A stretch of DNA of 64,000 nt from Promethearchaeota archaeon. GTDB taxonomy: Archaea; Asgardarchaeota; Lokiarchaeia; Sigyniarchaeales; SOKP01. Of this stretch, positions 8,987 through 34,030 are shown piece by piece (the first letter of the stretch is position 1; the number at the start of each line of letters is the position of its first letter). Location: NCBI GenBank assembly GCA_016840085.1, contig JAEOTA010000022.1, positions 1 to 64,000 of the forward strand, written 5' to 3'. The notes beneath the pieces are model-generated. The model was not told where the DNA came from and did not search any database. It saw only the letters and a program-made list of their open reading frames with translations. The translations under genes were made by a program, and so were the position numbers.

Positions 8987-9198
8987 CTAAAAAATGCCAA
9001 CATTCCTTTCTCTAAATTATAATATAAAAGAAATCCTAATATGATTTGAATATAAAATTTTTTGAATATTAGTACTTATTATAAAATCCCTTACAGAGAA
9101 ATAATCATCTTTTTACTCAATAAAAAACCTGCAAAGATTCTCTTTTTATATAGACGATTTTTCTTTTTATATTTAAACATAAAATTCAAAAGCTAAAA
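8987..9198 (+). repeat. ~210-bp non-coding direct repeat, copy 1
   Basis: Collinear with 16501-16714 (shared blocks e.g. AAAAATGCCAAC, ATCCCTTACAGAGAAATAA, AAAAAACCTGCAAAGAT, TAAACATAAAATTCAAAAG); roughly 85% identical by eye. Confidence 0.9.
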
Positions 9199-9435
9199 AA
9201 ATTGAAATTAAAAAAAGCCCAAATGAAATTACACAAATTAATTGGATGTTTAAGTAATTCCACCTTTGAAATTTTTTTCTAAACTTCTTGATAAATTGAA
9301 TTTCTATAATCTTTGCTTCTGGGATGGCACTACAGAGGAGAAAACAATTATCAAATGAAAAAATGAGTAAAATTTTAATGATTAAAAATCTATAAAACTC
9401 TTAGATTAATTTTAATTTATTCAAAAAATCCATAT

Positions 9436-11847
9436 ATGGTGTTAATTTTGGAATTGCAACTAAAAGAAATAGGAATTAAAAATTTTCTTAGTTATAAAGA
9501 TGCTAAATTCAAAGATCTTAAAAATTTTAATGTTCTAATTGGTAAAAATAATTCAGGGAAATCTAATTTGTTTAAACTTTTAGAATTTTTAAGAGAGAGA
9601 TTTAACAGTACAAATTTTAATAAAAATTATCTTTATAATGAAATTGATTCTAAGGCTGAAATTGATTTGAGATTTCTTTTATCAGAAACTCTTCGAGAAA
9701 AAATTTTTCAAAAATTATATAGAGGGAATTATTTACAAAAAGCCTTTATTCACAATGAAACAGATAAAGGATACCTTAAGAGAAATGAATGGAATAAAGA
9801 AGAGATTGCAATTAAATGGTTATTGAATAATGATATTTATAAATTTTTAGATGTTAATCTGAGTTTTTTACCTAATTTAGGTAGAATTATAATCACACGA
9901 ATTTCGATTTATAATGGAAAGTTTGATAAATCTCAGACATTATTTTCAGCAAACTTCGTAAACAACTCTTTTAAGACTGAATATTTAGATTTAGGGGAAT
10001 TATTATCAAGAGATAAGCCTCTCTTATATTTTTTTTCAGATTTTAATTCAACAGAAATTGGTTTTAATCAAAGTCCATTAAATGATATATTTATCAACGC
10101 TAAAAATTTCAATAAAAATCCTGTTTTACATATCTTATTAGAATCTCTTTCAAAAAACTTTTTTAACGCTCTTCATCATATTCCTGATAAGAGGAAATTT
10201 AATCCCGATACAGAGAGAGAAAATATAGCTAATACTAATCTTACTCCAGACGGAACTAACTTTGTCAAATTCATCCATAAAAAAAAATCCTTCAATGAAG
10301 ATGAGTGGTTGAATGAATTTATTGAAAGACTTAGGAATTATATGCCTGAAATAGAAAGATTAGGAGATACTATAGATGCAAATTCTGATCGAGCTATGCT
10401 AATATCAAAAGAAAAAGGATTGGATATGGAATTGAAGTACGAAAATATGGGTGCTGGTATATTGAATATTGCACTTTTTATAGCATATATAATGGAATTA
10501 GAAGATGAGAGTATTTTGTGTATTGAAGAACCAGAATTATTTATATTTCCAGGTCTGCAAAAACTAGTTCGAGATGAGTTTTTAAGAAGTAGTTCGAATA
10601 ATCAGATTTTTATTACAACACACTCACCACATTTTCTTTCGAGAGATTTCAATAATTCTGCAATATATCAGATTAAAAAGATTGATAACTCAACCTCAGT
10701 TATGAAGATTTCAGATGAAAATCTTTTTGAGGTGTTTAAAGAATTAGATTTAAATCTATACGATTATCTTCTCTATGACGGGATTTTGTTTGTGGAAGGT
10801 CAAGATGACCTAAATGTATTTAAAATTATTTCAGATGAACTTTTTGAACCAAAATTTAAAATTATTCAATGTTATGGTAAAAAAAAATTTATTTTTTATG
10901 CAGAAGCTGAAATTTTACATCTACTAACCAAAAGCGACTTAAAATTTCTATTTTTATTAGATTTAGACAGAGGTAACGAAAATATTTGGTTAAAAATTAA
11001 AGATGATAAACTTAAAGAAATTATAGAAGAACACACTCTTAAACTTTTCTCTTATGAAATTGAGAATATTTTTCTTCAACCAATACTAATTATTGATTAT
11101 TTATTCACTAAAAATAAGATTCAAAACTTAGTTGTGGATTCTAGATGGCTATTCGAAAATTTAGAACGCATTTTTATTAAGAAAGGTAAAAATAATTTAA
11201 AATATATCTTAAAAAAATTTATTGATTCTAACTATGATTGGTTTGGGAAAGATGATTATGATTACATATATAATGGAACTGAAAATATTAGTGCGTTGGA
11301 TGATATATATAAATATTGGATTGAGAGAACAGAAGAATTATTAAATAAGAAAGATGAATTTTGTGAAATTAAAATTAATGAGAAAGCTAAGCTCGTTGAA
11401 AATTTCAATGAAATTAAAGAAACATATGTTGAACACTTTAATAAAAAAGAATACTTTAAAATTATTTCTGGTAAAGATGTTATTAAAGAATTAAAGGTTC
11501 TTTTAACGAATAAATTTAAATTATCAGAAACTATTTCAGTAGAGAATTTGTCAATGCATCTATTAAAATTTTTAAATGACTATAACTACATACTTCCAGA
11601 AAAAGGAAAGGAACCTAACATTTTTAATTTTAAAGATGAATTTCTAGCATATGAACAACAGAAAATACCAATAACTGAAGAGCAGTTAATTGATTTTATT
11701 AATTATCTTGAAAAATTGAAGAAATTGATTATAGGAATACAAACAAAATTAAACTGTGAATTCCAAAAGAATTTTGAAAGACTAAATCGAATGGATTTCC
11801 AACAGATGTTTAATTTCTTAATTAAAAGATGGAATCTGAATTTGTAA
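9436..11847 (+). CDS. OLD-family ABC-ATPase + TOPRIM nuclease
   Basis: IGKNNSGKS (Walker A), MGAG signature, CIEEPE (Walker B), ITTHSP (H-loop), LFVEGQDD and LDLD (TOPRIM). Confidence 0.88.
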   Translation: MVLILELQLKEIGIKNFLSYKDAKFKDLKNFNVLIGKNNSGKSNLFKLLEFLRERFNSTNFNKNYLYNEIDSKAEIDLRFLLSETLREKIFQKLYRGNYLQKAFIHNETDKGYLKRNEWNKEEIAIKWLLNNDIYKFLDVNLSFLPNLGRIIITRISIYNGKFDKSQTLFSANFVNNSFKTEYLDLGELLSRDKPLLYFFSDFNSTEIGFNQSPLNDIFINAKNFNKNPVLHILLESLSKNFFNALHHIPDKRKFNPDTERENIANTNLTPDGTNFVKFIHKKKSFNEDEWLNEFIERLRNYMPEIERLGDTIDANSDRAMLISKEKGLDMELKYENMGAGILNIALFIAYIMELEDESILCIEEPELFIFPGLQKLVRDEFLRSSSNNQIFITTHSPHFLSRDFNNSAIYQIKKIDNSTSVMKISDENLFEVFKELDLNLYDYLLYDGILFVEGQDDLNVFKIISDELFEPKFKIIQCYGKKKFIFYAEAEILHLLTKSDLKFLFLLDLDRGNENIWLKIKDDKLKEIIEEHTLKLFSYEIENIFLQPILIIDYLFTKNKIQNLVVDSRWLFENLERIFIKKGKNNLKYILKKFIDSNYDWFGKDDYDYIYNGTENISALDDIYKYWIERTEELLNKKDEFCEIKINEKAKLVENFNEIKETYVEHFNKKEYFKIISGKDVIKELKVLLTNKFKLSETISVENLSMHLLKFLNDYNYILPEKGKEPNIFNFKDEFLAYEQQKIPITEEQLIDFINYLEKLKKLIIGIQTKLNCEFQKNFERLNRMDFQQMFNFLIKRWNLNL

Positions 11848-12105
11848 TATGATTTAATCAGTCAAATCATTAATTTAATTCATTAAATTAATTTTTCCCC
11901 TAAGAATGAGGAGAATATCACAGCAAGACACTAATTATAAAAGAAAATGGGGAAAATAATATATTTGTGTTTGTTTTAAAGAATAATAAGACAAAAAAGT
12001 AATATAACTAATTTAAAATGAAAATTATTTCGATTGAATTCAAGAATCCATTTCAGGTTATATTAATCCAATTAAAATTAACTAAATACAAAATCGGTAT
12101 TTAAG

Positions 12106-14541
12106 ATGGTATTAAATCTTTCAAAATTTAAAGGAATGAAATGCACTCAATGTATTGAAGGTCTTTCACTTAAAAGAAAAAATACAGTTAATTTTGCATA
12201 TTGTGAGAATTGTGGAAAGGTATGGATGCTAGATTATTCTAAAGATGGTAATATAGTGGGATTTGAATGTTATGAACTAAATTTTCTGATTGAATTTAAT
12301 GTTGAGTTACCTTTCAATTTGGGTTTGCCTACAGGGCTTTATTCATATGGTACACCAAATCAACTGAGGATTAGGAGAGATATGTATTATTTTCAAAAAG
12401 GAAATGAATTGGAAAATGTTAGGACAATGCAACCATTTTATTACCCTGAAAAAGAAACCTTTGATAAATTCGGAATGGTTAGGAAAGATCATAAAGATAA
12501 GGGTTTTAAAAGAAAGATGAAAACTGTCTTCTTTAAAAGATTTTCATTATCTGGTATTTTTAAAAGAGGGTTTGAAATCCAAAAGCTCTTAAATGAACCA
12601 AATATGTTAGGGCTCATATACAGAATTCAAAATAAATTCTTGGAATTAGTAAATCAGTTTTTAATGTATTATAGTATTTTTTTTCCAGCGAACAATACAA
12701 AAGGATTAAGTCAACATGAAATAAGACCTATCTCAATATATGAATTCAGTAAATGTTTATTTAACTGCAGAGCAATTATCAACAATAAATCTTATGAAAT
12801 AATCCCGATCATTCAAGATTATACAAATCTCAAAGGATATCCAGACATTTCTTATCTTAATGAAAAAGGAAAATTGGATGAGTTTGAAAAAGTATTACAG
12901 AATCACAAGAATATATCCATTTTAGAATATCAACAGATGTTCATTCTTGCTCGTTCATTATACCGTACAAATAGAAATTTTATGGGAGGGGCAATAATAA
13001 CAATGGCGATGACGTCGTATGAAGCACTTCTATACAGTCTTGAGACGAATCATCCATTTTTTCTAAATTTAAGACTTGTAAGGAAGGATATTTTTAAAAA
13101 ACATCCCGATCTAAAGAAACCTGGGAAAAAATCGTTTGGTTTTCTCGAGTTTTATACAAATTATGCCAGGAGTTCAATTTTTTGGTTAATAAAAAGAGAT
13201 TATATAAATAATTTTGAAAACTCTAAAGAATTGCGCGAGCACTTGAAAAATTTGAATATAATGAGATGGATAAGAAATGATATTGTCCATCGTGCAGAAT
13301 TTAAGAAAAAAGTACAAAAAGAATATAATACTGAAACAGGATTTAAAGATATACATCTTATTAGTTATAAAGATAAAAGGAAAAACAAAGTCTATTCAAT
13401 TGATTTCAATATACTATGGAATAGCTTTCTAAAAATATATGATATTTTAGAAAAAATGATATTAAAAATTAAATACAATAATATTAATTGGGAAATTGAA
13501 TGCATACCAAAATTCGAGTATTTAGGATTTAATACTGAAGAAGGTCGTCACATCTTATCAATGGTCCCCAATATCAATTGGCGAGAAATGAATTCTTATA
13601 AAATTTCAATGGATCCTCCTTCCGTTCCACCAGAATTATTTCCTATTGATTTAAAAACTAATGATAATAAGAAAATCTGTATTAATTTTTCAAAAGAAAC
13701 AGAAAAATTTGAAAGATTTACTTCTATTGAGACTCCAATTAAGTCTTCTTCTAAGGATATTAAAAAATCAATGAAGCAAAAAAAAATTCATATACATTTT
13801 ATGAGGAATGGTCCAAAAATTTATTCAAGTTGTGAAAATTGTGGATATATTTTAGCAATTCATCAACATCATTACTATAAAAATTATAAATGTCCTAAAT
13901 GCAACACAGAATTCGATATACTTAATAAATGGTTAATAAGCGGAAGTGATTATTTAAAGAAATATAATTCTAGAATTGCAATTGAATTTTTTAAAAAAGC
14001 ATTGGAGATAGATTCAGAAAATCCTGAGGTACTAAATAATATCGGTGTATGCTATTTTAATCTTAAAAATTATGAGCAATCAAGAAATCATTTTGAACAA
14101 ATTGATTTGAACTCTATAAAAGATACAAACATAAAAATGGTGGTTATATGTCATAAAGCTATGACTTACTATGAATTAAATCAAAAGAATAAATGTAAAG
14201 AATTGCTTAATAAAGCTTCATTAATTGATCCGGGGAATTGGTTCTTGCTTATAAATCAATGCATTTATCTAACTAATGAAAAACATTCTGATGATGCTTT
14301 GACATTATGTGAAAGTCTAATCGAGAAAGATGAATTTAATCCTGACTTAATGTACTTAAAATCACGTATTTTGACACAAAAAAGAAAATATTCTGATGCC
14401 GTCGCACTTTTATCAAATGCAATCAATCTGGATCCGTCATTAAGAAATAAAGCAATGGAACAAGTAGATTTCGAACCGCTGAAAGATTTAGATGATTTTA
14501 AAAGTATCTTAAATGAAGGAATAAATAATGAAAATGAGTGA
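12106..14541 (+). CDS. Zn-ribbon + HEPN-like + Zn-ribbon + TPR protein
   Basis: CTQC/CENC N-terminal; SYEALL...RNDIVH; CENC/CPKC; TPRs (AIEFFKKALEIDSENPEVLNNIGVCY). Confidence 0.7.
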   Translation: MVLNLSKFKGMKCTQCIEGLSLKRKNTVNFAYCENCGKVWMLDYSKDGNIVGFECYELNFLIEFNVELPFNLGLPTGLYSYGTPNQLRIRRDMYYFQKGNELENVRTMQPFYYPEKETFDKFGMVRKDHKDKGFKRKMKTVFFKRFSLSGIFKRGFEIQKLLNEPNMLGLIYRIQNKFLELVNQFLMYYSIFFPANNTKGLSQHEIRPISIYEFSKCLFNCRAIINNKSYEIIPIIQDYTNLKGYPDISYLNEKGKLDEFEKVLQNHKNISILEYQQMFILARSLYRTNRNFMGGAIITMAMTSYEALLYSLETNHPFFLNLRLVRKDIFKKHPDLKKPGKKSFGFLEFYTNYARSSIFWLIKRDYINNFENSKELREHLKNLNIMRWIRNDIVHRAEFKKKVQKEYNTETGFKDIHLISYKDKRKNKVYSIDFNILWNSFLKIYDILEKMILKIKYNNINWEIECIPKFEYLGFNTEEGRHILSMVPNINWREMNSYKISMDPPSVPPELFPIDLKTNDNKKICINFSKETEKFERFTSIETPIKSSSKDIKKSMKQKKIHIHFMRNGPKIYSSCENCGYILAIHQHHYYKNYKCPKCNTEFDILNKWLISGSDYLKKYNSRIAIEFFKKALEIDSENPEVLNNIGVCYFNLKNYEQSRNHFEQIDLNSIKDTNIKMVVICHKAMTYYELNQKNKCKELLNKASLIDPGNWFLLINQCIYLTNEKHSDDALTLCESLIEKDEFNPDLMYLKSRILTQKRKYSDAVALLSNAINLDPSLRNKAMEQVDFEPLKDLDDFKSILNEGINNENE

Positions 14542-14715
14542 AAAAGAGAAAGAGAGTTATTATAATAAGATCAGCAATTTAGCTAAAATCCTAAAATTTT
14601 ATTTTTGAAGTGATAAAAGAATGAGAATTAAAAAAATTTTAATGGAGCACTATAATAAGTTTTTAAAATTTTTGTTTAGTGGTGTTTTTAACAATGACTT
14701 AAAAATTAAGGGTAT

Positions 14716-16469
14716 ATGCTTCCTTTAAGATTAAATTTTGCTCTAAATCTTATTTTATTATTACTAACTATTCTCTACTATTTCTCACGGAAAAAGGAAC
14801 ATCCTGCACAGAAAATCAAGAATGTTCTTATTACATTTTTCATTATTATGTGTTCTCTTTTCTTTCTAAATTTAGATTCTTTAATCTTTTCTCAAGATTT
14901 AGATTCAATAGAAAATATGATCTTTGGTGGTTTCTCTCCAATAATATTAATCAGTTCACTTATTATATTCATTAATTCATATTTTATAGTAGAACAAGAC
15001 ATTATTGAATTAGACACCCCCTCCAGATATAAATCCAGAAAAGGAACTATTAAACTCGGAAAAACAATGAAAAAAAAAAGAATGAAACATAAATTCTTCC
15101 TTTCATTGAAGGACCTTGAAAGGCATATGTTTGTTTGTGGCGCTACTGGAACAGGCAAAACCAACTTTTTACAATATTTTTTAATGAACTTTAAAAAACG
15201 CTATAATATACCATTCCTATTAGTAGAGTTCAAAGGTGAATATATTTTTCTCCAAGATAAAATAGAAGATTTATTAATAATTAGACCTGGAGAAAACTTT
15301 TCAATGAATATATTTAATCCAGAAGGGGCTAATCCAGAAATTCATGCTGAAAGGATTTTTGATATTTTAAAAAGTGGTCAATTTCTAGACGACCACGCGG
15401 AATTTTCACCCCAAATGCAAAAAGTGTTAGTAGATATCTTAACAATAATTTGTAGCAATCCTCGCCTTCAAAGTTGGAATGGCTTTTATAGAGAGTGTGG
15501 AAAATACTTAGAAGACCAGAAAAAAAAATCCCAATGGTCCATCAAACTCTTATTAGTATCCAAAATAGAATTAGAAGATTTTCGATAGGACCAATAAAAG
15601 CTGTTTTTGCTACAAGATATAAATTAAAAATTAGGGATCTATTCGATAAAAACATATTAATAGATCTAAGCTCTATTATCCGCTTAGGTGGAGAAAAAGA
15701 GGATGCCTTATTCTTTCTAAATATGATCTTAAAATATTTATGGGACAAAAATTTAACATATGGAGCGTATAACTTTAAGGGGATAAAGCACATAACAATT
15801 GTCGAAGATGCACAATATTTTGCGCCAAAAGATAAATCTTCTCAAACAAAAATATCATCTTATCTTGAAGATATTGCGTTATTACAAAGAGGAACTGGGG
15901 AATGCTTAATCTCGATCGCAACACGACCTAATGTAAGCGCAGAGATTCTAGCTAATTGTGGTGTGTTAATAACTTTTAAAAATTATATGTCAAAAGATTT
16001 CCTAAGCAAATTATTAAATCTGAGTGAAGAAAACGAGGATTATTTGTCTTACTTAGAAGAAGGTCAGTGTATAGCACGGGTAAATTCCATCAAAAAACCT
16101 TTTTTACTGTGGATACCATACATTGAAAGGCATTGGCTAAAGAGAGGAGACGTTAATAGAAAAAACAAAATGATCTTAAAAAAGTTTAAAGAGCAAGACG
16201 AAAGAATATCACAAACTACAAATGTATCAAACCCTAAAGTTGAAAACTCTAAGAAAATCTCTCAAAGCGAACGAAACAATCAACATATGGATAAGAATTT
16301 TATAGAAGTTGCTAAAATGAAATATTTTATTGATAACATGTATAATGATGATACAAATACTAAAAAAGAGTTTAATCCGCAAAATTATAGAAAATGCCCT
16401 GAATGCTTTTCAATAATCGAGAAAGCACATAAAAATTGCCCTTATTGCGGATCATTAAAGAAAATATGA
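14716..16469 (+). pseudogene. Membrane-anchored HerA/VirB4-like (DUF87) ATPase with C-terminal Zn ribbon, split by a frameshift at the A9 run 15520-15528
   Basis: ORF1: TM helices and RHMFVCGATGTGKT; ORF2: ITIVEDAQ (Walker B), QRGTG...IATRP, CPEC/CPYC. One extra A would fuse them (~584 aa). Confidence 0.8.
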
Positions 16470-16500
16470 ATAACGCCATTTATAGAATGTTTATTTTTAG

Positions 16501-16714
16501 CTAAAAAAATGCCAACTTTCCTTTCTCTAATTCATAATCTACAAGAAATCCTGATACGGTTTGTAAACTATATTTTTTGAATATTAGAGATTATTATAAC
16601 ATCCCTTACAGAGAAATAACTATCTTTTTATTCAATAAAAAAACCTGCAAAGATACTCTTTTTATATAGGCGATTTCTCTTTTTATAATTAAACATAAAA
16701 TTCAAAAGATAAAA
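16501..16714 (+). repeat. ~210-bp non-coding direct repeat, copy 2
   Basis: Collinear with 8987-9198; lies just downstream of the HerA-like gene. Confidence 0.9.
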
Positions 16715-16816
16715 TTATGTTCAACTCAGGTAAAGAATTTAATCAAAAGAAGCTTTTTTTACATTTTAATGGTTTAGTAGACGAATATATGAATAGGATC
16801 GTTGGGAAACATAAAA

Positions 16817-18082
16817 TTAAATTTTCTCAACTTTAATTGCTTTCCAAGATTCTTTTTGTTTTTTCTTGTCGTAAGAAGGTATTGCTTCACATTTTACTTC
16901 ATCATTATCTTTAACATTTGAGGGTAAAATAGATTTGTCGCATATTATTGATTCTTTTTTAGTATTGATGAAACAGAAAGGTCGATTTTGACGACCCAAA
17001 TTTAAAACACCCATAAATGTCTTTTTTTTTGATTCCTTCATTTTTTGAATTTTAGTATTTATATTTCCTTCTGCTTCCCAAAATTCTTGACAGTGTGAAA
17101 ATATTTGGTTAATTGAACTTAAATTAGAAATATCCGGAAAAGAACCAGATAACTTTTTTATAGAAGACTCTATATCTTCTGGAACAGTCCAACCTTCCTT
17201 TTCTCGAATTAGTTTACTTAATATAAAATGATATAATGCTTCTTTATCTTTTCCTAATTCAACACATAAATTTCCAATTCTATGATAAATATTTACCATT
17301 ATTTTCATAGACTTATTTAAAATCGCAGCTTGATAGAACATTTTCAACGCATTATCTTTAACATTCATCTTCAATAACAAATCTGCATAATCTTTGTAAA
17401 TCCACCAATCTTTTTTATATCTCATTAACTCTTCATATATTTTTGCTGAAACCTCATATCTCTCTGACTCTTTAAAAGATTTAGCTTTTAAATTAAGAAA
17501 GAATTCCTTAATTTGGGGAAACTCATTAATGCATTCATCAATATTAGAAATAACTTCCTCATATTGCCCAATTTTTAGTAATGCCTTATAATAATTATAT
17601 TTCCATCGAGATTTATCACTCCATTTTGTACCTTTTATAAAATCTTTACTTAAATCCTCAATATTCACTTTTTTTAGCCATTTAATTGCATTTTGTAACT
17701 TTTCGTGATTATCTGCTAGTTTTAATAATTTGAAAGCAATTTTTTTTAGTATAATAGGATTAAATGTTATTTTATCGATTTTTTTAGCAACAATTAATGC
17801 TTCAGTAAAACTATTAACTTGTTTAAATGGACCACTTACGAGAGTCCAAGCAACCTCATTTTTTACCCAATCTATTGTGGGAAATAAATCTATTAGACTC
17901 TTAGCAAAAGAAACAGCATATTCAAAATTTTCTAATTTTCTTAAACAATGAAGCAAACCAGCACCTGTATATGCATCTTTTAAAATATCCCAACTTTGTT
18001 TATAATATTCCAATGCCTCTTCATATTTGTTTTCTTTCCTTAAAATATTTGCTTTAATAGCTAAATCTTTTGGTTTCATCAT
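16817..18082 (-). CDS. TPR protein with C-terminal cold-shock/OB-fold domain
   Basis: TPR helices throughout; C-terminal PFCFINT...DEVKCEAIPSYDKKKQKESWKAIKV. ATG at 18082 preferred over TTG at 18151. Confidence 0.75.
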   Translation of the reverse strand: MMKPKDLAIKANILRKENKYEEALEYYKQSWDILKDAYTGAGLLHCLRKLENFEYAVSFAKSLIDLFPTIDWVKNEVAWTLVSGPFKQVNSFTEALIVAKKIDKITFNPIILKKIAFKLLKLADNHEKLQNAIKWLKKVNIEDLSKDFIKGTKWSDKSRWKYNYYKALLKIGQYEEVISNIDECINEFPQIKEFFLNLKAKSFKESERYEVSAKIYEELMRYKKDWWIYKDYADLLLKMNVKDNALKMFYQAAILNKSMKIMVNIYHRIGNLCVELGKDKEALYHFILSKLIREKEGWTVPEDIESSIKKLSGSFPDISNLSSINQIFSHCQEFWEAEGNINTKIQKMKESKKKTFMGVLNLGRQNRPFCFINTKKESIICDKSILPSNVKDNDEVKCEAIPSYDKKKQKESWKAIKVEKI

Positions 18083-18602
18083 TAATAATCCATTGCCTTT
18101 TGGAAATCTATATATAATTATTAAAGTAAATTGAAAATATATATTTTTCAATAAATGTGATTATACTAGCATAGAATATCAAAAAATTATTAATAGATTA
18201 AAAACAACAGATAGATTTCATAGGGGTTATGTACAATTTTATTCGAACAGTAATCTGTTTGTTCAAAAAATTAATAAAAAATATAAATTCAATCTCCCGC
18301 TTTTGTTGAGACAATCTAGCAAGGTTTTTCAGCTCTACGAGAAAAATTTCATGCAAAAATACAAAATTTTATTTACTAAATGATTAAATTCTAAATGAAT
18401 TAATCATAAAAAATTTAAGTAAACAGAAGAATTAAGATATTAACCAAAGCAAAAAATCTAAATTCCTAATATGTAACTTTTAATCATTATTAAAATATCC
18501 TTTACTTTTATGGGATTATAACTCAAAATATAAGAAAAATGATACAAATTATAGAATATGAGCTTAATGAATTTCCTCTAATAATTGAAAAAGGTTAGAA
18601 AT

Positions 18603-20279
18603 ATGTCTCAAAAATCCATAAAATTAAATAACATTCAACTTAGAAATTTCATCGAAGAATTAAAAAAATTAGATATTACGCCTAAGAAATTTCCGGGAAA
18701 TACAGATTCTGAATTAATTCGATTCAAACAGAATGAAAGATTTTTTGTAGTCTATAAAAATGGAACTATACTTAAAAAACCTGATTTTCTTATTGATAAA
18801 TTAATTGAGAGAATTATTTCTGATACTTTAAATGAATTATATCAAGATTTTGATTTGATTATTGGATCTGATGAAGTTGGTAAAGGAGAATGGTATGGAC
18901 CTTTAATAACAGTGGCAGCTTGTATAAAAAAAGAAGATATATTAAAATTTCAAAAAATAGGAATAAGAGACAGTAAAAATTTAAAGAAAAATCAAATTAT
19001 TTCTATTTTTAATGAATCTAATAAATTAAAATTTCAAAGACATTCTGTTACAATTAATCCTCAAAGGTTGAATGAATTATGGAGGGATTTCATTGAGAAT
19101 AATCAAAACTATAATGATCTTATTGCGTGGCAACATCAACGCGCAATTTTAGACTTATTAAAAAAAATAGACATTTCAAAAAGAATTTTAATAGTAATCG
19201 ATAAATTTGATTTAGAAAAAGTAGATAAAAGATTAAAAGATTTGCAAAAGAAGGATAATATTAAAATTCTTCAACTTTCTAAAGGAGAAAGCCATATTCC
19301 AGTAGCTTTAGCAAGTATTATTGCTAAGAATATGTGGTATGAAAAGATTGAAGATATCAATAACAAGTTTAATATATCATTACCAAAAGCTTCCATTGAT
19401 GAAATTGAACCTCAGATAGTTCACCAGATTGGAAAATTATTTTTCAAAAATGTTAGGAAAGTTGTAAATGCATTTTTTTTAAAAAAAAATCTGGAAAATC
19501 TATTATTAACCGAAATAGGAAGAATTGAACTATTCGATAAAAATATTAGAGATATAGTTTTAGAGATTTTCAAAAATGATAAGAAAATCTATAATTATTT
19601 GATTTCAGCTTATAAATTTGACTTTAAAACTAATCAAGTTCAAAGAGAAACATTAAATTCAAAAGACTTTATCAAGGTTATTGAAAACGAGGAACTATCT
19701 AAAAATGAAATAAAATCTTTAAAAGAAAGAGATCCTGATTTTTTAATTAAAAGATTTATACTACATCAATTAAATCAAAAACTAGATGAATTAGATAATA
19801 TTGATTTTAAGTATTGTATTAAACCAGTAAAAAGAATAGCTAAAACCATATCCGCTTTTTGTAATAGATATATTTTAACAAGAACTGATTCATTTATAGT
19901 ATTTGGAGTTAAAGACATAAAAGATATGCCTGATGGTTTTTCAGTTAAAGATAGGATTTTAAATTTAGATAATATGCTTAAAGAATCTAAACTCGCAACA
20001 CCAGAACAATTTCAACTCAAACTTAATGATATTGTTGAAAAACATTTAAAACCTAACCCTGACACATGTTATTCAATTAAAAGTTTAAATTTAAAGGATT
20101 ATGGTCCTTTTAAAGAGGATTGTGAAATTATCATTATTAGTATTAAAAATTTTAATTTAGATAGTCCAATCCATTTTGAGGGTAATGTTTATATTCGTAA
20201 AAATGGAGAAGATAAAATCGCTGCTCATGAAGAAATTGAGCAACTAATGAAAAATATTCATCAATTAAAAGAAAAATAA
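18603..20279 (+). CDS. RNase HIII fused to C-terminal Schlafen/AlbA_2 domain
   Basis: TBP-like N-terminus (FVVYKNGTIL); IGSDEVGKGEWYGPL, GIRDSK, VIDKF, KGESHIPVALASIIAK; then ELDNIDFK, IAKTISAFCN, IVFGVKD, VYIRKNG. ORF track start 18585. Confidence 0.85.
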   Translation: MSQKSIKLNNIQLRNFIEELKKLDITPKKFPGNTDSELIRFKQNERFFVVYKNGTILKKPDFLIDKLIERIISDTLNELYQDFDLIIGSDEVGKGEWYGPLITVAACIKKEDILKFQKIGIRDSKNLKKNQIISIFNESNKLKFQRHSVTINPQRLNELWRDFIENNQNYNDLIAWQHQRAILDLLKKIDISKRILIVIDKFDLEKVDKRLKDLQKKDNIKILQLSKGESHIPVALASIIAKNMWYEKIEDINNKFNISLPKASIDEIEPQIVHQIGKLFFKNVRKVVNAFFLKKNLENLLLTEIGRIELFDKNIRDIVLEIFKNDKKIYNYLISAYKFDFKTNQVQRETLNSKDFIKVIENEELSKNEIKSLKERDPDFLIKRFILHQLNQKLDELDNIDFKYCIKPVKRIAKTISAFCNRYILTRTDSFIVFGVKDIKDMPDGFSVKDRILNLDNMLKESKLATPEQFQLKLNDIVEKHLKPNPDTCYSIKSLNLKDYGPFKEDCEIIIISIKNFNLDSPIHFEGNVYIRKNGEDKIAAHEEIEQLMKNIHQLKEK

Positions 20280-20532
20280 TCTCAAAACTTTCATTCCTAT
20301 ATTCAAATTTTATTTTGTTTAAAAGAAATGAAGGAATTAATTTTTTTAATTAAAGTATCATCTTGAATTAACATAAACATAAATATGCAATTTAATCATT
20401 ATATCATATAATTTGTTAGAAATAGACAAAAATAGAATTAGAATTTTTTAACAATCAATAAATTATGGTCTATCTCATTCAAAAAAATGAATGAAGACAA
20501 AAAGAATTGGGTGATTTCATATTAGAACTGAA

Positions 20533-23301
20533 ATGGAGGTTCTCCGGAAATATGGTTACGACATTCTAGTTAATCATTTTGAACCTTTTTTAAGAAATTT
20601 CATAGTAAACATTGTATTATTAAAAAATTATAAGGATAATTGGAAAAAACAAATCCCAAAGCATATTGTAAGACGTTTAATTAAAGAAAGAAAGATAAAT
20701 TTTTCTAAAGTAAAGATTCATGAATTTTTTCAACAATTATTCTTCTCAGATTTAAAGAGTATTCTTATTTTTAGCGAAAATTATGAAAAATCAGAAGATC
20801 TTATAAAGGATTTGGAGAAAAATATGTTCATTTTATTAATGAATGAGTTAAATCGAATTAGACGTAAAGTTGCTCACGTTAAAGAAAATTTTTCTCAAAT
20901 AGATTTGGATAATATTAAAAATGACATTCGGAGTATATGTCGTGGTAAAGCGAGTGTTTCAATGATAGTTTTTATAGATAATGAAAAATATATTGAAAAT
21001 GTAAATTTAAAGTCAATAAAAATTGTGGATCAAGGAGATAAATGTAAGAATAATTTACCTGCTGCAGATTATGATTTAGATGGTGGTTTTGTTGGCAGGA
21101 ATAAAGAAATTAATGAAATTATCGAAAAAATTTACTCTGATTTAGATAGAATCATTACAATTAATGGTGCTGGTGGAGTAGGAAAAACTGCTTTAGCCTT
21201 AGAACTTACTAAATCGATATTAGATGATCCAGATAATCCTTTTGAGGCTATTATTTGGTTTAGTGCGAAAGAGGAGCGATTAACCGAAATTGAAATTGTT
21301 CCTATTGAACCTGACATTAAAGATTTAGAACAGTTAATAAATGACATTTTAGAAATAATTGATAAAAATGCATTTGAAAATTACCAACAAGTGAATGTTC
21401 CAATTGAATACTGTGTTGAGTTTTTATATAAAAGATTTCGAGAGCACAAATATTTGCTTATAATAGATAATCTTGAGACTATCCTAGAAAAAGAACATTT
21501 AATTAGATTTATTGAAGATGTGCCATGCAAAGTGCTAATAACAAGTCGAATGGGATTAGGAAGGCTTGAAAGACCAGTTACTTTAAAAGAGCTTGATGAA
21601 TCTGATGCATTATTATTATTTAAATATGTAGTAAAGGCCAGAGATATTCAGGATTTAATTAATTTAAACGATAAAAAAATTGTTAAATTAGTTAATAAAG
21701 TGAAAAGATATCCTTTAGCAATAAAGTGGTCGATTGGAAAATATCTTTTAGGTCAAAAAGTTGAAGAAGCATTTCCAAATAATTTACCAGGTGATAGTCT
21801 TATTGCCAAATTCAGTTTTGAACACATTTTCTCACTATTATCCGAAAATGACAAATTAGTACTTTATAGCATCATTGTGTGGAATGAATCTGTTTCTAAA
21901 GAAATGTTGAGATATCTCACAGAGTTGGATGATGAAGATTTAGATACAGCTATAAGAAATTTAATGTTAACGTCTTTCATTTATCTTGTTGATTTTAATA
22001 CAAAATATGCTATTTTAAGTCTTACAAGTGGATTTATAAATATAAAGTTAGACGAAAATAAAAAAATACGAGTAATACTCCAGAATAGAAAATATTATTT
22101 ATCAAAATTAATTGAAGGAGAAGAAAAACTAAGATCAAGTCGATATTCGCTAATAGATTCATTGGGTATAAAAACTCCTGAAGAAAAAATTGCATTTGAT
22201 TATATAAAAAAAGCAAAAGAGTTTTTCTTAATTAAGAATAATCTAAATGAATCTGAGAAATTATTTGAAACTGCTGTTAGCATTTCACCTGATTTGGGAT
22301 ATGTTTATGAAGAATTTTCCAAATTTGAGTTTTATAGAAAAAAAGATCATAATAAAGCAATTCAACTAGCAAAAAAGAGTATAGAAGTTGAACCTGAAAA
22401 TTTTCATCTTTGGCTTAATTATGGAATTATGCTAAGAAAGACTAATCAAGTAAAAGAAGCTATATTAATCTTAAAAAAAGCCTTAGAATTAAACCCAAAA
22501 TATATAACTACGGCATATCAACTAGCTCGGGCTTATACTTTTATAGGTGATTATAAAAAAGCAGATGAGTTATTAGAACAAGCACAAAACAAATCTAAAC
22601 TTCGCAATCAGAGACTTTATATTATCTCGTCAACAATAAGAATAGATAACTATATACGATGGGCTAAAGAACATTTATTTAATAAGAATTATGATAAAGC
22701 AATTAATTTATTGAATTACGCAGAAGGGTATGCTAATGATATCATCAATATTGATCCTAACGATGATTATATTCATTATTTTACAAGAGAATTACATTAT
22801 ACGTATGGCTTAATATATGAAACTAAAGGTGAATCTGATAATGCATTAAAATCCTTTGAAAATGCCGTGGCGGAAATTGCTAATAAGAGGGATATCGGAA
22901 ATCGTAAAAATCTTTTCGCAAGATCTTTCTATCGAATTGCAAAATTAAAAGAAAAAATAGGAGTTTTCAATATTCAAGAAATAATCGATTTTATTGATAA
23001 AGGATTAGCTGATTGTAAAAAGGATTCAAAAATATATAAAAAATTAAAAAAATTTAAAGTTCAAACTTTTAAATTAGATAAAGAACGTCTAATTGGAAAG
23101 ATTATTTATTTTAATCCAGATGAAGCATATGGTTTTATTAAAAGTAAAGAAGAAGAATATTTTTTTCATATAAGTGATTTTATAGAAAGGATTAATTCAA
23201 GTAGTTTAATTGATTCGAAAGGAAAAAAAGTTTCATTTAACGTTTTGAAGAAGCATGAGAATGGTAAAAAAGATATTGCTGTAAAAATTGATTTAATTTA
23301 A
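20533..23301 (+). CDS. Swt1-like HEPN + NB-ARC/STAND ATPase + TPR + cold-shock domain (Avs/NLR-like)
   Basis: FEPFLRNFI...RRKVAH; FVGRNKEI, GAGGVGKT, LLIIDNLE, VLITSR, YPLAI; TPRs; YFNPDEAYGFI...FFHISDF. Confidence 0.85.
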   Translation: MEVLRKYGYDILVNHFEPFLRNFIVNIVLLKNYKDNWKKQIPKHIVRRLIKERKINFSKVKIHEFFQQLFFSDLKSILIFSENYEKSEDLIKDLEKNMFILLMNELNRIRRKVAHVKENFSQIDLDNIKNDIRSICRGKASVSMIVFIDNEKYIENVNLKSIKIVDQGDKCKNNLPAADYDLDGGFVGRNKEINEIIEKIYSDLDRIITINGAGGVGKTALALELTKSILDDPDNPFEAIIWFSAKEERLTEIEIVPIEPDIKDLEQLINDILEIIDKNAFENYQQVNVPIEYCVEFLYKRFREHKYLLIIDNLETILEKEHLIRFIEDVPCKVLITSRMGLGRLERPVTLKELDESDALLLFKYVVKARDIQDLINLNDKKIVKLVNKVKRYPLAIKWSIGKYLLGQKVEEAFPNNLPGDSLIAKFSFEHIFSLLSENDKLVLYSIIVWNESVSKEMLRYLTELDDEDLDTAIRNLMLTSFIYLVDFNTKYAILSLTSGFINIKLDENKKIRVILQNRKYYLSKLIEGEEKLRSSRYSLIDSLGIKTPEEKIAFDYIKKAKEFFLIKNNLNESEKLFETAVSISPDLGYVYEEFSKFEFYRKKDHNKAIQLAKKSIEVEPENFHLWLNYGIMLRKTNQVKEAILILKKALELNPKYITTAYQLARAYTFIGDYKKADELLEQAQNKSKLRNQRLYIISSTIRIDNYIRWAKEHLFNKNYDKAINLLNYAEGYANDIINIDPNDDYIHYFTRELHYTYGLIYETKGESDNALKSFENAVAEIANKRDIGNRKNLFARSFYRIAKLKEKIGVFNIQEIIDFIDKGLADCKKDSKIYKKLKKFKVQTFKLDKERLIGKIIYFNPDEAYGFIKSKEEEYFFHISDFIERINSSSLIDSKGKKVSFNVLKKHENGKKDIAVKIDLI

Positions 23302-23557
23302 TTATCGAGTAATATATGCATTCTCATTAAATATATTTTCTATATCTATTCTAATAAGTATACAAGTAGGTCTACAGGATTTTATCGAAATGTGAAAAAA
23401 ATTATGCCTTGAGCTTTTTCCTCTACGTATTTTGATTAGACCGACTTTTATTTTAGGTATAAATATGTATATGTATCAATATTAATTTCCCAAGAAAAAT
23501 TCTAAAAAATAAGATATATGTATATTCTTGATATAGATATATTTGATAAAGATTGAA

Positions 23558-24385
23558 TTAAAATCTTGAAACATGTCGCGTTGAGATTTTTGGGTATTTC
23601 TTCTTTAGAATCTGAGATATTTCCTCTGAAAAATCGTATACTAATTGAAATAGATTTTCTTCATTAACTATTATTCCCAATTTATCTCTATATTTTACAA
23701 TTTTCTCCTCATCTTCTTTTTCGATTTGTGAAGGTAAATTCTCCAAATTGGAAAGAATTAAATCTAAATAAACAAAATCGCTAATAGCTTTTCTATCGTG
23801 GAATATTTCAATATTATATTTCTTACCTAAATTAATAATTTCATTCTTTAAACCAATATTAATGTTAATTGGGTCTATAGATTTGTCAAAATAGATGTAA
23901 ATAGTTTTATTTTGATCATTAAAGCCCCAATGTTCATTTAAATTCAGCCCCCTATGAGTAATCATTTTATCCCTGACATATTTTATCCTCAATTTAATCT
24001 TTCTTTCATATTTGAATATAAATTCTTTATATAAATTAAACCAAGAATCAGTATAAGGAGTTGTTTTTAAGCTTTTAACATGATCTTTAAAAGATCTTGA
24101 TTTTAAATTGTAATTAGATAAAAAAATTTGATTAATATATCTTATAAAATAATCGATATAGATTTTAGCAAATAGATATAAGGTTTTAATATCCAAAACA
24201 ATTGTTTCTAAATTAAAAGGAATGAATTTCCCCGTTCCAGAATATTTTGCTTCAATTTCCTTATTTTCTTTGATTCTGGTCAATAAAATTCGAAAGTAAG
24301 TAATAATTTGAATTAATACTCCTGCAGATTGAGATGCTTTTATATTATCGATTAATATTGGAATAGAAAACTCAAATTTACTCAT
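23558..24385 (-). CDS. HEPN-motif protein
   Basis: RDKMITH (R-x5-H); intact paralog of 3097..4029. Confidence 0.7.
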   Translation of the reverse strand: MSKFEFSIPILIDNIKASQSAGVLIQIITYFRILLTRIKENKEIEAKYSGTGKFIPFNLETIVLDIKTLYLFAKIYIDYFIRYINQIFLSNYNLKSRSFKDHVKSLKTTPYTDSWFNLYKEFIFKYERKIKLRIKYVRDKMITHRGLNLNEHWGFNDQNKTIYIYFDKSIDPININIGLKNEIINLGKKYNIEIFHDRKAISDFVYLDLILSNLENLPSQIEKEDEEKIVKYRDKLGIIVNEENLFQLVYDFSEEISQILKKKYPKISTRHVSRF

Positions 24386-24428
24386 TCTATCTCCTTAACT
24401 AATTCTAATTTTTATAAATAAATTTTCT

Positions 24429-24550
24429 AATTATTAATTCACTAAGAAAATCTAATAAAAACATAGAAAATTGAATATAAATATAATGGCAGATATATCT
24501 ATTGTGAAATCATAAATATGACTCAAAAAGAATTAGACAAATGGACAGGT
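24429..24550 (+). repeat. Duplicate of hsdM promoter region and first 11 codons
   Basis: Near-identical to 27364-27485; encodes MTQKELDKWTGEKC* versus HsdM MAQKELDKWTGRK. Confidence 0.9.
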
Positions 24551-24601
24551 GAAAAGTGTTAAGGTTGATTGTATTTTGTTATTTATTAAAAAAAAATATG
24601 T

Positions 24602-25657
24602 ATGTTAAGGATTATTAAAATGAAAAATTGGATTATTATTCATCATTTTTCAAGTTATCTTGAGCATAATGATTTAATTGGTATTCCTGCTAGGTTAGAT
24701 AAAGAAGCTAATGAATTAGTTCCAAAATATTCTGCAGCTGAAGAAATTCAAAATGGAGATCAATTTGCTTATTATTGTCCAGCCCCCAAAAAAGTTGTGA
24801 TCGGATTATTTGAGATAATTGATGGACCAGGAATATTTGCTGATGATTGGAATGATAGCATTCATTTTAGGATAAAACCAATTCTACCAGTAGACTTAGA
24901 TACTAACAGTGTACCTTACCATGATTTAGTAAATAACTTGAACTACTTTAAAGATAATGAAGGAAAAGTGTTAATTGGTCCTTCAGCCTCATTCAAATTA
25001 AAAGGAACGATAAAATCTATTGATAATGAAGACTTCAATAAGATCTTAAAGCTATATAAGAAAACTGAAATTATCCCTCAACCAGAAGATTCACTACATA
25101 TCAATATGATTAAAACAAGTCATCTCCAAGCTAACCAATTTCAATGTTATAGCTTTGTAGGCTCTCAAGAACGCAATCGAGTATATAATAATATCTCTGA
25201 TAATGAAGAGATATATGTTTCAGGTGCTACTATGGAAGATCTACCCTCGTGGTTATCTGACATAGGAAATCAATTAGGAACACAACAGCGCATACGTTAT
25301 ATTGATAATCTCTGGTTTTTTGAAGAATCACCCGGATTTTATGTACCATTTGCAGCAATTGAACATGAAAAAGATGCAAACTTAAGGGGTGTAATGGACC
25401 GTTTTACCGGGTTGAATAATACTTTAAATAGCAATAAGCACCTTAAAGAAATTAATCCATTATATTTTTTAGTCGCTAAAGATTCTACTCAAGCTTATTC
25501 CTATGAAAGGAAAATTAATGAACATGGAGAATGGAGACTTTTTAAAAGAGATCATAAGTTTTTCATCTTTTCAAAGCCTGAAATTGAAAATAGAACTCCA
25601 AAATACGTTCAAATCCTCACAGAGCACTTGAAATCGATACCGTATTATGAAGGATGA
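24602..25657 (+). CDS. EVE/PUA-like domain + PD-(D/E)XK-like nuclease (candidate modification-dependent restriction enzyme)
   Basis: WIIIH...EIQNGDQFAYY...VIGLFEI N-terminus; YIDNLWF...AAIEHE C-terminus; start may be 24620. Confidence 0.6.
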   Translation: MLRIIKMKNWIIIHHFSSYLEHNDLIGIPARLDKEANELVPKYSAAEEIQNGDQFAYYCPAPKKVVIGLFEIIDGPGIFADDWNDSIHFRIKPILPVDLDTNSVPYHDLVNNLNYFKDNEGKVLIGPSASFKLKGTIKSIDNEDFNKILKLYKKTEIIPQPEDSLHINMIKTSHLQANQFQCYSFVGSQERNRVYNNISDNEEIYVSGATMEDLPSWLSDIGNQLGTQQRIRYIDNLWFFEESPGFYVPFAAIEHEKDANLRGVMDRFTGLNNTLNSNKHLKEINPLYFLVAKDSTQAYSYERKINEHGEWRLFKRDHKFFIFSKPEIENRTPKYVQILTEHLKSIPYYEG

Positions 25658-25684
25658 AAATTAAAATTTTTTATTTGTATATAG

Positions 25685-27307
25685 ATGATTGATAAAGAGA
25701 TTTTATTAACTGAAGCAGATCCTAAATTTAAGGAATTCATGATTTCTGTTTTAGAGGAATTCGATCGTATTAGAACAAATCTACCAGGAATAGAAATAGG
25801 AAATAATCCTATTTCTCCTCATAATGAATATGTCATCCCTCCAAATTTATTTAGTGATTTTGGACAATTTGATATAGAAGAGTTTAACCCAAACGTAATA
25901 AATCAATTGAATGAATTATTACTAATAGATGAATTTCCTCTTCATATTTACTTTGATTTAGATTTTTCATATTATGGAATAAAAATTGTAAATTTTTATG
26001 ATAAGCTATTTGAAGAAACTTTTCTCATCTATTTATTCTGGAATTCTACCCTGCCTTTAAAAATATTATCAATGATAAATGAATTGCGAATGAGTTTTAA
26101 GTTAAAAAAAATGCCAATTAATATTCTAATTCCTTTAAAAGGATTTTATTTGCCAAGTAGAAAGGAAGATAATAATCATATGAGCAAAATCTATAATATT
26201 CAATTAAAAAAAATAGATGAAGCTACTCAAGTAGCGCTTAAGAATATCTCAAATTATTCTATAATAAATTTTCATTATAATGATAATGAAAACAAGATCC
26301 AATTTGTTTTTGAAGGAATTAATAAACAATTCTCAGAATTTTGTATTAATGCTAAAGGAAACACTGACTTTAAGCTACAGGAGTATGATCCAAGATATTC
26401 CTATTCATACCTATGGAGATATATCGAAGAAGTTGCTCAATCGTTAACTTTGGAAGGTACTTTACTAAGATTTGGTCAACCTTTTTATAATTTCCCTTGG
26501 TGGATTTCTAGTGAAACAAAAATAAGATTCGATTTCCATTACCCCGAGTGGATGAGTAATAAATTTATGAATAAAAATAATTATTCTGGATTAGTACCCG
26601 ATACAGAATCCTTTTCTACAACATTTTTCCGTCAAATGAGAAAATATTATGAAAAAGGAAAGCAATTATGGGAAAAAGATTTTATTATTAATTATGGGGC
26701 TCCACTGAACTCAGAGATGGAGTTTTTAAATGAGCTTCATTCAGATTCAAAATTTATATCTAATCCCGATAGAATCGTGTATCTTTTTAGAAATTTAAAT
26801 GATAACAAATCCACTATTAATTTTAAAAAAGATTTCTTCATTCTTGATAGATTTTTGAAATTAAGCCAAAGAGAAAAAATAGAAGACATTATTTTAGATG
26901 TTTGTATAATTTTAGAAACATTGTTATTATACAATATCCAGGATGAACTTTCTTATCGATTAAAGTTAAATGTTTCAAGTTTACTAGCTGAAAATGTCGA
27001 AGAATTCGACTTTTATTTTAATTTTTTCTCAGAATTGTATAAATATCGTAGTGCGATAATACATGGAAATCCAAAATTAACAAGAGGTTATAAAAATTTT
27101 GTTGAAAATACATATCCAAATCTATTAGAGAAGCTGGATATAAATAACGAAATCTCTAAGAATTTTATAAATAAAACAATACAGTATGATATATTCAAAA
27201 AGATATGCATGGTGTTTAATAAGTTAATAGATTCAAATATAGATTACCGTAATGATTTTAAAACAGATGGTTTTCTAAAAATATTTCTTAAAAAAGAACC
27301 AATTTAA
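25685..27307 (+). CDS. ApeA-like HEPN domain protein
   Basis: LETLL...ELSYRLKLNVS...LYKYRSAIIHG. Confidence 0.75.
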   Translation: MIDKEILLTEADPKFKEFMISVLEEFDRIRTNLPGIEIGNNPISPHNEYVIPPNLFSDFGQFDIEEFNPNVINQLNELLLIDEFPLHIYFDLDFSYYGIKIVNFYDKLFEETFLIYLFWNSTLPLKILSMINELRMSFKLKKMPINILIPLKGFYLPSRKEDNNHMSKIYNIQLKKIDEATQVALKNISNYSIINFHYNDNENKIQFVFEGINKQFSEFCINAKGNTDFKLQEYDPRYSYSYLWRYIEEVAQSLTLEGTLLRFGQPFYNFPWWISSETKIRFDFHYPEWMSNKFMNKNNYSGLVPDTESFSTTFFRQMRKYYEKGKQLWEKDFIINYGAPLNSEMEFLNELHSDSKFISNPDRIVYLFRNLNDNKSTINFKKDFFILDRFLKLSQREKIEDIILDVCIILETLLLYNIQDELSYRLKLNVSSLLAENVEEFDFYFNFFSELYKYRSAIIHGNPKLTRGYKNFVENTYPNLLEKLDINNEISKNFINKTIQYDIFKKICMVFNKLIDSNIDYRNDFKTDGFLKIFLKKEPI

Positions 27308-27452
27308 CTATAAGTTTTTTATATTCTTTCTTATAAAGAGCTTTATTTTTTTAATAATTTGGAAATTATTAATTCACTAAGAAAAGCTAATAAAAACATA
27401 GAAAATTGAATATAAATATAATGACTGATATATCTAGAGTGAGATCATAAAC

Positions 27453-28961
27453 ATGGCTCAAAAAGAATTAGACAAATGGACAGGTCGAAAAATGCCGAAA
27501 TTAACCCTTGATAAGTTAGAGTCTTTTTTATGGAATGCTGCGGATATACTACGCGGCAGTATTGATTCCTCAGAATATAAACATTATATTTTTGGATTGT
27601 TGTTTCTAAAGCGACTTTCGGATGAGTTTGATGAGGAACACGAACAAGTTGAAGGTGATCCTGAAGATCCCGATAACTATCAGTTTTTTGTGCCAGAACG
27701 AGCTCGATGGAAGAGTATTCGTAGAGTATCAGAGGGAATTGGAAATGCTATAGATAAAGCTTTTGAAGCGCTAGAAGAAAATAATCCTCTCTTAGAAGGT
27801 GTCTTAACACCAATTCAATTTCAAGACCCTAAGCGTTTACCAGATGCAGTATTGAATAAGCTTATTACGCATTTTAGCCAACCCGAGTTTAACCTTGCCA
27901 ACTCGAATTTAAGCGAACCAGATATGCTAGGAAGAGCTTATGAATATTTGATTAAACAGTTTGCCGATGATTCTGGTAAAAAAGGAGGTGAATTCTATAC
28001 TCCCCAGGGTGTTGTAAAACTTTTAGTCCGACTTTTAGATCCTCAAGAAGGAATGAGAATTTGCGACCCTGCATGCGGTAGTGGTGGAATGCTTATTGAA
28101 AGTTTTAATTATTTGAAAGAACAAGGAAAAAATCCTAATAATATTTCAATTTTTGGACAAGAAAAGAATTTAAACACTTGGGCTATTGCGAAAATGAATT
28201 TTTTGCTACATAATATTCTTGATCACAGAATTGAACATGGGGATACTATGGCAGATCCCAAATTAAAAGAAGATAATCTTTTAATGTTATTTGATATCGT
28301 CATCGCGAATCCTATGTGGAATCAAAAAGAATGGAATCGTGAATCATTTGAGCGAGGAGATCGTTATGGAAGAGCAAAGTATGGAATCCCTCCAAAAAGC
28401 TCTGGTGATTGGATGTGGGTACAACACATGTTAGCCACATTGAATAACAGGGGAAGATTGGGAATAGTATTGGACAATGGCGCATTATTTCGAGGTCAGA
28501 GTGAAGGAAAAGTAAGAAAGGCAATTGTGGAAGCAGATGTTATTGAAGGAATTGTTGCGTTACCCTCTAATCTTTTCTATAATACTGGGGCTCCAGGTTG
28601 TTTAATAATAATAAATAAGCAAAAATCAGAAGAATTGAAAAATAAAATATTTTTTATCCATGCTGAAACTGAGTTTGAAGAAGGAAAAGCACAGAATTTT
28701 CTGAAAGATAAACACATCCGAAAGATATCGAAAACTTATAGAAAAAAAGAGGAAATAGAGAAATTTTCAGCATTAATCGATCTTGAGGAAATACAAGAAA
28801 ATGATTATAATTTGAACGTTTCCCGTTATATTGATACTTTACCTGAAGAAGAACCCATTGACGTTACTGAATATAATACAGAACTACAGAAACTGCAAAC
28901 TGAACGATTAGAATTAGAAAAAGATTTTGAGAGAAATATAAGAGATTTAGGGTATAAATAA
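27453..28961 (+). CDS. hsdM: Type I RM methyltransferase subunit
   Basis: LWNAADILRG, GEFYTP, DPACGSGG, ANPMW. Confidence 0.95.
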   Translation: MAQKELDKWTGRKMPKLTLDKLESFLWNAADILRGSIDSSEYKHYIFGLLFLKRLSDEFDEEHEQVEGDPEDPDNYQFFVPERARWKSIRRVSEGIGNAIDKAFEALEENNPLLEGVLTPIQFQDPKRLPDAVLNKLITHFSQPEFNLANSNLSEPDMLGRAYEYLIKQFADDSGKKGGEFYTPQGVVKLLVRLLDPQEGMRICDPACGSGGMLIESFNYLKEQGKNPNNISIFGQEKNLNTWAIAKMNFLLHNILDHRIEHGDTMADPKLKEDNLLMLFDIVIANPMWNQKEWNRESFERGDRYGRAKYGIPPKSSGDWMWVQHMLATLNNRGRLGIVLDNGALFRGQSEGKVRKAIVEADVIEGIVALPSNLFYNTGAPGCLIIINKQKSEELKNKIFFIHAETEFEEGKAQNFLKDKHIRKISKTYRKKEEIEKFSALIDLEEIQENDYNLNVSRYIDTLPEEEPIDVTEYNTELQKLQTERLELEKDFERNIRDLGYK

Positions 28962-28974
28962 AAATTCAATAGCT

Positions 28975-33227: not shown

Positions 33228-33266
33228 AAAATAAGACCAAATAAATATACAAAAAAATAAGTTAAA

Positions 33267-34010: not shown

Positions 34011-34030
34011 CAAAAGGATTATTAAAAAAT

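Follow-up and report, generated by a model that had tools for sequence, protein, structure and literature searches.

Whether an RNase HIII joined in frame to a Schlafen domain in an archaeon is a real protein, and what such a protein would be for, is the question raised by one gene of the window (the whole 64,000-nucleotide stretch of Promethearchaeota DNA analysed here). Its open reading frame runs for 558 aa from an ATG with no internal stops, and the motifs quoted for both halves by the first-pass annotation are all found where it had placed them: SDE at residues 89-91, VID at 198-200 and KGE at 227-229, followed by E396-x4-DFK, SAFCN at 417, FGVKD at 434 and YIR at 530. The gene and its parts are as follows.

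18603..20279, + strand: RNase HIII-Schlafen fusion gene, 558 aa
18603..18842, + strand: TBP-like N-terminal domain, aa 1-80 (structural alignment to 4py5 from residue 5; sequence alignment)
18843..19457, + strand: RNase HIII catalytic domain, aa 81-285 (invariant residues; PF01351, E 3e-21)
19458..19754, + strand: helical linker of about 100 aa, matching no family (low model confidence; dN/dS 0.13-0.54)
19755..20279, + strand: Schlafen/AlbA_2 domain, aa 385-558, with E396-x4-D401-x-K403 and two insertions relative to canonical AlbA_2

Full-length fusions form 11 clusters at 52-100% identity from several sources, and the gene is spanned by single contigs in two sequencing runs, probably those of the source study, without a single difference, which rules out a one-off assembly chimera. 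Runs containing this DNA are metagenomes of marine sediment, and the named relatives both of the protein and of a homologue from its family belong to Promethearchaeota, pointing to a Loki-type Asgard host. The fusion is real, and all of its regions are under purifying selection, with dN/dS at or below 0.55 in every one. That Pfam overlooks the C-terminal domain in the full-length query would suit a neutral passenger fusion or an assembly artefact, but this explanation is already largely refuted by the conservation data, since the motifs stay intact and each region stays constrained in clusters as distant as 52% identity, and we regard it as very improbable.

The N-terminal half was compared with known RNases H by sequence and by predicted structure. 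The model (pLDDT mostly 77-96 for residues 1-280) matches RNase H3 4py5 with Z 25.2 and rmsd 3.0 over 259 aligned positions, spanning residues 5-283 and thus including the TBP-like domain, which is hybrid-binding in characterised RNases H3; the sequence alignment to 4py5 covers residues 5-265 (phmmer, E 4e-19). D90, E91, D200 and E229 are invariant in the fusion alignment, as are GKG 93-95 and DSK 123-125, and the four carboxylates are the equivalents of those of Ta-RNase H3 (PMC4132731). The top NCBIfam match is rnhC, ahead of RNase HII, at 116.5 bits against an rnhC equivalog cut-off of 161.2 bits. The RNase H core has the lowest dN/dS in the protein (0.11-0.13 in close pairs), and that of the TBP domain reaches 0.55. 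Taken together, sequence and model identify this half as an RNase HIII with a motif-complete catalytic site that is predicted to be intact, and so uphold the TBP-like domain and full acidic set claimed at first reading; the linker of about 100 aa was likewise recovered, as a helical stretch.

No Pfam family was detected in the C-terminal domain when the full-length protein was searched. Residues 380-558 alone, however, match PF04326 at 42.7 bits (cut-off 25.3; E 9e-11), and profile-profile alignment to canonical AlbA_2 domains (hhalign) gives 96.8%. The fold matches 2kyy, SAMD9 (7ksp) and 3lmm about equally (Z 9.1-9.5), and Foldseek also retrieves SLFN14 and SAMD9; when PDB sequences were searched with the Schlafen profile, only chance matches came back. 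Among the 11 members E396 and K403 are invariant, position 401 is D or E, and Ex4(D/E)xK is kept in all, with dN/dS of 0.12-0.31 for the domain. The arrangement E396-x4-D401-x-K403 conforms to the Ex4DxK motif needed for RorSlfn5 defence and RNA cleavage (PMC13056530). The C-terminal domain is thus, as first proposed, a Schlafen/AlbA_2 domain, with RNA cutting as its predicted activity.

RNase HIII is usually viewed as a bacterial housekeeping enzyme. The genome encodes a separate RNase HII, on a contig (C83) amid core-looking genes, and an RNase HI on another (C5). The generalisation that RNase HIII is mainly bacterial does not fit the phylum, in which 69 of 301 genomes carry an RNase HIII homologue; in one family (f9) it is present in 57 of 76 genomes as a stand-alone gene 3′ of a biotin-ligase gene. 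A second RNase HII-family match was present in all eight of the reasonably complete carriers checked. As judged from these sequences, RNase HIII is widespread in archaea and has often been recruited into conflict modules. The fusion itself is present in only 2 of the 135 genomes of its family and is a rare accessory gene, not a housekeeping one. PADLOC has no model for it, no relative was found on viral contigs, and plasmids yielded RNase HIII-domain matches only, none reaching 80% coverage.

The fusion lies within a group of defence-type genes spread within about 30 kb of it.

7135..36763, no strand assigned: surrounding defence island, context only (Pfam, PADLOC and motif evidence)

Known defence genes less than 10 kb from the fusion are a type I restriction-modification system, an OLD-like ATPase-TOPRIM gene and a HEPN-NB-ARC gene; the island also holds an IrrE-like gene with DUF4411, a HerA-like gene, a second HsdM and three more genes with RxxxxH-type motifs. 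The IrrE/ImmA-like peptidase and its DUF4411 partner occupy 7135-8755, and the OLD/PARIS-like ABC ATPase-TOPRIM protein 9436-11847. The HEPN-type RxxxxH genes lie at 12106-14541 (TPRs and a weak zinc-finger match), 23558-24385 and 25685-27307 (the latter two matching no Pfam family). The HerA-like ATPase at 14716-16469 consists of two overlapping ORFs split at an A run near 15520, and its paralogue on C83, 62% identical, is uninterrupted in a single frame; the split may represent a frameshift, phase variation or an assembly error. Just downstream of the fusion, 20533-23301 encodes a protein with Swt1-like HEPN (weak match), NB-ARC, TPR and cold-shock domains, which makes this gene an NLR-like candidate for defence. 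It was rejected as a conserved partner, other genes being found at that position in three further loci (L003, L059 and L001).

Trees of the RNase H core separate an archaeal-type clade (KGEW) from a bacterial/TOTE clade (KGDYF) with SH-aLRT support of 99. The sister pair of the fusion family (SH-aLRT 97) differs in its linker and ends in a PD-(D/E)XK-like tail; for the tails of P0012, P0019 and L014 this call is made from an EID...ECK motif alone, and Pfam and PDB searches of them returned nothing. In further branches (P0013 and nine additional clusters, most of the latter with an apparently duplicated N-terminus) RNase HIII is joined to a canonical AlbA_2 by a short linker, and elsewhere in the archaeal-type clade it carries HEPN. 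A single clade of Schlafen-fused RNase HIII cores was rejected by the AU test (p 1e-10), so that effectors must have been gained, lost or exchanged several times. An adjacent clade of stand-alone RNase HIII genes (Bathyarchaeia and others, 30 loci) stands head-to-head with a TBP-like/zinc-finger/PIN gene. The Schlafen subtype of the fusion in turn occurs on unrelated N-termini at 57% and 39% identity, one of them membrane-anchored. Two-way exchange of sensors and effectors is a typical signature of sensor-effector conflict systems. Related RNases HIII are thus found with a Schlafen, a HEPN, a nuclease-like tail or a PIN partner, in line with the modularity that the first-pass annotation described for Schlafen proteins, and on sequence grounds both halves of the fusion are swappable modules, a point that is new here.

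Several related arrangements were observed in the same searches. The TBP-like/zinc-finger/PIN gene is conserved and 281 aa long (PIN E 7e-8 to 3i8o; for example L046:8539-10267 and L071:7097-8846), and in L095 and L096:7977-8540 the RNase HIII is present as two ORFs (187 and 121 aa) next to an intact copy of it. P0231 and L166 (G327) carry the divergent Schlafen subtype after a beta-rich domain without annotation and a putative membrane anchor, which makes them candidates for a membrane-linked Schlafen of Asgard archaea. RNase HIII is also found C-terminal on proteins with a Lon protease (S16) domain (P0016, P0081, P0087, P0099 and P0110; Atlas cluster with 173 members). A search of Atlas by shape listed clusters of RNase HII, Lon and HEPN type, with AlbA_2 in none. 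One RNase HIII-AlbA_2 protein with an apparently duplicated TBP-like N-terminus (P0027; L055:8001-9569) lies amid metabolic genes with no evident defence island.

TOTE systems (TPR, OB, TBP, Effector) often include an RNase H, as outlined in PMC12458937, and the gene divergent from the fusion is of this type, a link that the first reading overlooked.

16817..18082, − strand: TPR-DUF7017-S1/CSD (TOTE-type TPR-OB) gene, 421 aa, divergent (PF22707, above cut-off; PF22860)
18080..18143, − strand: ancestral TOTE operon leader joined to the TPR-OB start (match in L148 and L152 to the DNA preceding the RnlA-like gene)

The TPR-OB gene is divergent from the fusion in the window and in L003, L059 and L062, and one homologue (P0106; 36% identity, E 3e-73) is itself fused to RNase HIII. 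The window's TPR-OB, with its Pfam TOTE domain, occurs in this genome only among the 301. An operon of RnlA-like HEPN, RNase HIII and TPR-OB genes houses all of its homologues with 79-86% or with 37% identity, and wherever the context of a further homologue was examined, it was an operon or fusion of the RnlA-like/RNase HIII kind. The co-directional operon with a TOTE-clade RNase HIII and an RnlA-like TBP protein, present at all other loci examined, is absent from the window, and a search of the genome, which is 98.8% complete, returned no RnlA-like gene. The leader matches DNA upstream of the RnlA-like gene at 91% over 65 nt and 83% over 71 nt, and its junction with TPR-OB is the same in the four loci, in each of which the fusion stands head-to-head. 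Since the operon leader is fused straight to TPR-OB, the junction appears to be a scar left when the RnlA-like and RNase HIII genes were lost. TPR-OB remains intact and under selection at the divergent loci (dN/dS 0.24-0.31 at dS 0.5-0.8; overall range 0.21-0.48), and the window's copy is nearer to the operon alleles than the other divergent copies are, suggesting allele exchange or more than one event. Descent of the fusion's RNase H from the operon's own RNase HIII was rejected, the two belonging to different clades (KGEW versus KGDYF). The simplest reading of these sequences is that a TOTE operon, neighboured by a non-orthologous RNase HIII-effector gene, lost both of its nucleases. TPR-OB would then have been retained because it serves the fusion, of which it is a probable partner.

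Since TPR-OB is absent beside P0009 and P0010, it is not an obligatory one. In these and other deeper-branching members (P0009, P0010, P0012 and G228) a gene of 140-150 aa lies directly upstream instead, its close form being confined to the two fusion-bearing genomes of the 301. Atlas suggests Whirly for its product (0.91-0.92, a weak recognition), and the likeness is taken as a lead only. TPR-OB and Whirly folds are known to bind single-stranded nucleic acid. Such partners would suit an R-loop, with the hybrid going to RNase HIII and the displaced strand to the partner.

Rarity, an island location, intact motifs, selection, module swapping and the operon scar all speak for defence, and the fusion is likely, though not certain, to be a defence protein in one of the three forms considered here. 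The form favoured over its rivals, with confidence just short of even, is a Schlafen tRNase activated by accumulated hybrids or R-loops. The fusion would be a prokaryotic Schlafen protein acting as an accessory nuclease against invaders, its regulatory half being an RNase HIII with intact catalytic residues, and would have replaced the RnlA-like HEPN and RNase HIII pair of the TOTE operon. Its TBP-RNase H module would bind and cut RNA:DNA hybrids (primers, R-loops) that accumulate as a virus or plasmid replicates and is transcribed, while a partner with a single-strand-binding fold, TPR-OB or the Whirly-like protein of deeper-branching members, would bind the displaced strand or restrain the enzyme. 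Sustained occupancy by hybrid might then bring the Schlafen domains together through the helical linker and switch on tRNA cleavage, which would stop translation and leave the infected cell dormant or dead. A trigger of this kind is suggested by analogy: RNase HI enhances RnlA (PMC7180214), RNase H/TBP-like domains have been proposed to steer HEPN toxin RNases to hybrids (PMC3710099), an idea that also underlies TOTE (PMC12458937), and SLFN11 is activated by ssDNA (PMC13056530). It is awkward for hybrid sensing that an active RNase H would destroy its own ligand, and host R-loops would have to be tolerated; the dispensable partners, the related fusion among metabolic genes and the stand-alone homologues after a biotin-ligase gene are also contrary to it.

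PMC13056530 elucidates a single pSlfn sensor, which recognises a phage protein rather than nucleic acid, and RorSlfn5 is triggered in this way. The RNase HIII/TPR-OB module might likewise capture viral factors that target RNase H or its TPR partner, by binding or by inhibition, and thereby release the Schlafen tRNase. A Schlafen fused to a copy of a housekeeping enzyme would suit such a guard, and the TBP domain and TPR-OB do evolve faster than the RNase H core; however, a pure decoy would have no need of the four catalytic carboxylates, which are retained in the most strongly selected part of the protein, and an archaeal viral RNase H inhibitor was not identified in the present analysis, leaving this explanation unlikely. 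We consider it improbable that the two nucleases are simply co-localised or co-inherited, with RNase HIII clearing invader primers and R-loops and the Schlafen domain controlled separately, for instance by TPR-OB as antitoxin. 'Two-headed RNases' were proposed for HEPN fusions (PMC3710099), and TOTE operons, like the RNase HIII/TBP-Zn-PIN pair, do divide the same functions between separate genes, but coupling is suggested by the repeated in-frame addition of varied effectors at one and the same end and by the conservation of the linker under selection.

A role in genome maintenance or stress rather than in antiviral defence would make the protein a supplementary RNase H for R-loops, with an AlbA_2 domain that binds the freed RNA, degrades it or slows translation under replication stress. 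Homologues are near-core and in a housekeeping context in family f9, P0027 has metabolic neighbours, and known defence genes are missing from the neighbourhood of 30.4% of pSlfn genes (PMC13056530). Yet the fusion is confined to so few genomes of its family, in a host already provided with RNases HI and HII, and is found in a defence island beside a TOTE remnant with its effectors being swapped, so that we give this role, too, little chance. The hybrid-activated Schlafen tRNase remains the reading that we prefer.

The first-pass annotation knew of no description of the fusion, and the literature search, with the TOTE review and the pSlfn supplement lying outside it, likewise found none; two recent surveys of archaeal and Asgard defence mention neither RNase H, Schlafen nor TOTE. 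From its sequence the fusion is probably an undescribed immune protein, although the concept of a toxin RNase coupled to RNase H has close precedents. A broader proposal, which we advance tentatively and think rather doubtful, is that archaea, above all Asgard lineages, repeatedly made RNase HIII the sensor of an undescribed R-loop- or hybrid-triggered immune family with interchangeable effectors (Schlafen, HEPN, PIN, PD-(D/E)XK) and single-strand-binding partners, and that here such a module displaced the TOTE nucleases and took over TPR-OB, giving a Schlafen switched on by nucleic-acid structure, like human SLFN11. If so, RNA:DNA hybrids or R-loops would join the triggers of prokaryotic Schlafen nucleases, and would do so in the archaeal group nearest to eukaryotes, whose SLFN11 and SAMD9 respond to nucleic acids. 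No experimental test of TOTE systems was found in the literature searched, from which their defining review was absent; the fusion and TPR-OB offer a two-gene, single-enzyme handle on these predicted systems, and chimera tests are made possible by naturally occurring variants that have or lack the RnlA/RNase HIII pair and by the natural exchange of effectors on one RNase HIII.

Four known systems come close to the one described here. With RNase HIII/RNase H3 (rnhC; 4py5, 2d0a, 3vn5) the fusion shares the TBP-like domain, catalytic fold, four carboxylates, GXG and DSK, and it differs in having 270 additional C-terminal residues, in scoring under the rnhC equivalog cut-off and in being an accessory gene of a host that also has RNases HI and HII. 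RNase LS/RnlA HEPN toxins (PMC3710099; PMC7180214) likewise couple a toxin RNase to an RNase H/TBP-like hybrid-binding domain, with RNA:DNA duplexes as the proposed target (PMC3710099), whereas the fusion has a Schlafen effector, a type 3 RNase H, an archaeal host and no visible RnlB-type antitoxin. The pSlfn1-55 proteins (RorSlfn5, EcoSlfn7; PMC13056530) have in common with it the Slfn/AlbA_2 domain, Ex4(D/E)xK, a variable fused partner domain and a defence-island location; in the fusion, known here from sequence, that partner is a complete, apparently intact RNase HIII. The main text of PMC13056530 does not mention RNase H but lists a 'TBP-like' class (1.5%), and that survey covers complete RefSeq genomes, whereas the fusion family comes from metagenomes and MAGs. 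Finally, TOTE systems as outlined in PMC12458937 also combine in one locus a TPR-cold-shock/OB gene with the Pfam TOTE domain, a TBP-like domain, an RNase H and a nuclease effector. The window locus differs from a TOTE operon in lacking the RnlA-like and RNase HIII genes of the latter, and in having in their stead a divergently transcribed RNase HIII of another clade that carries Schlafen instead of HEPN.
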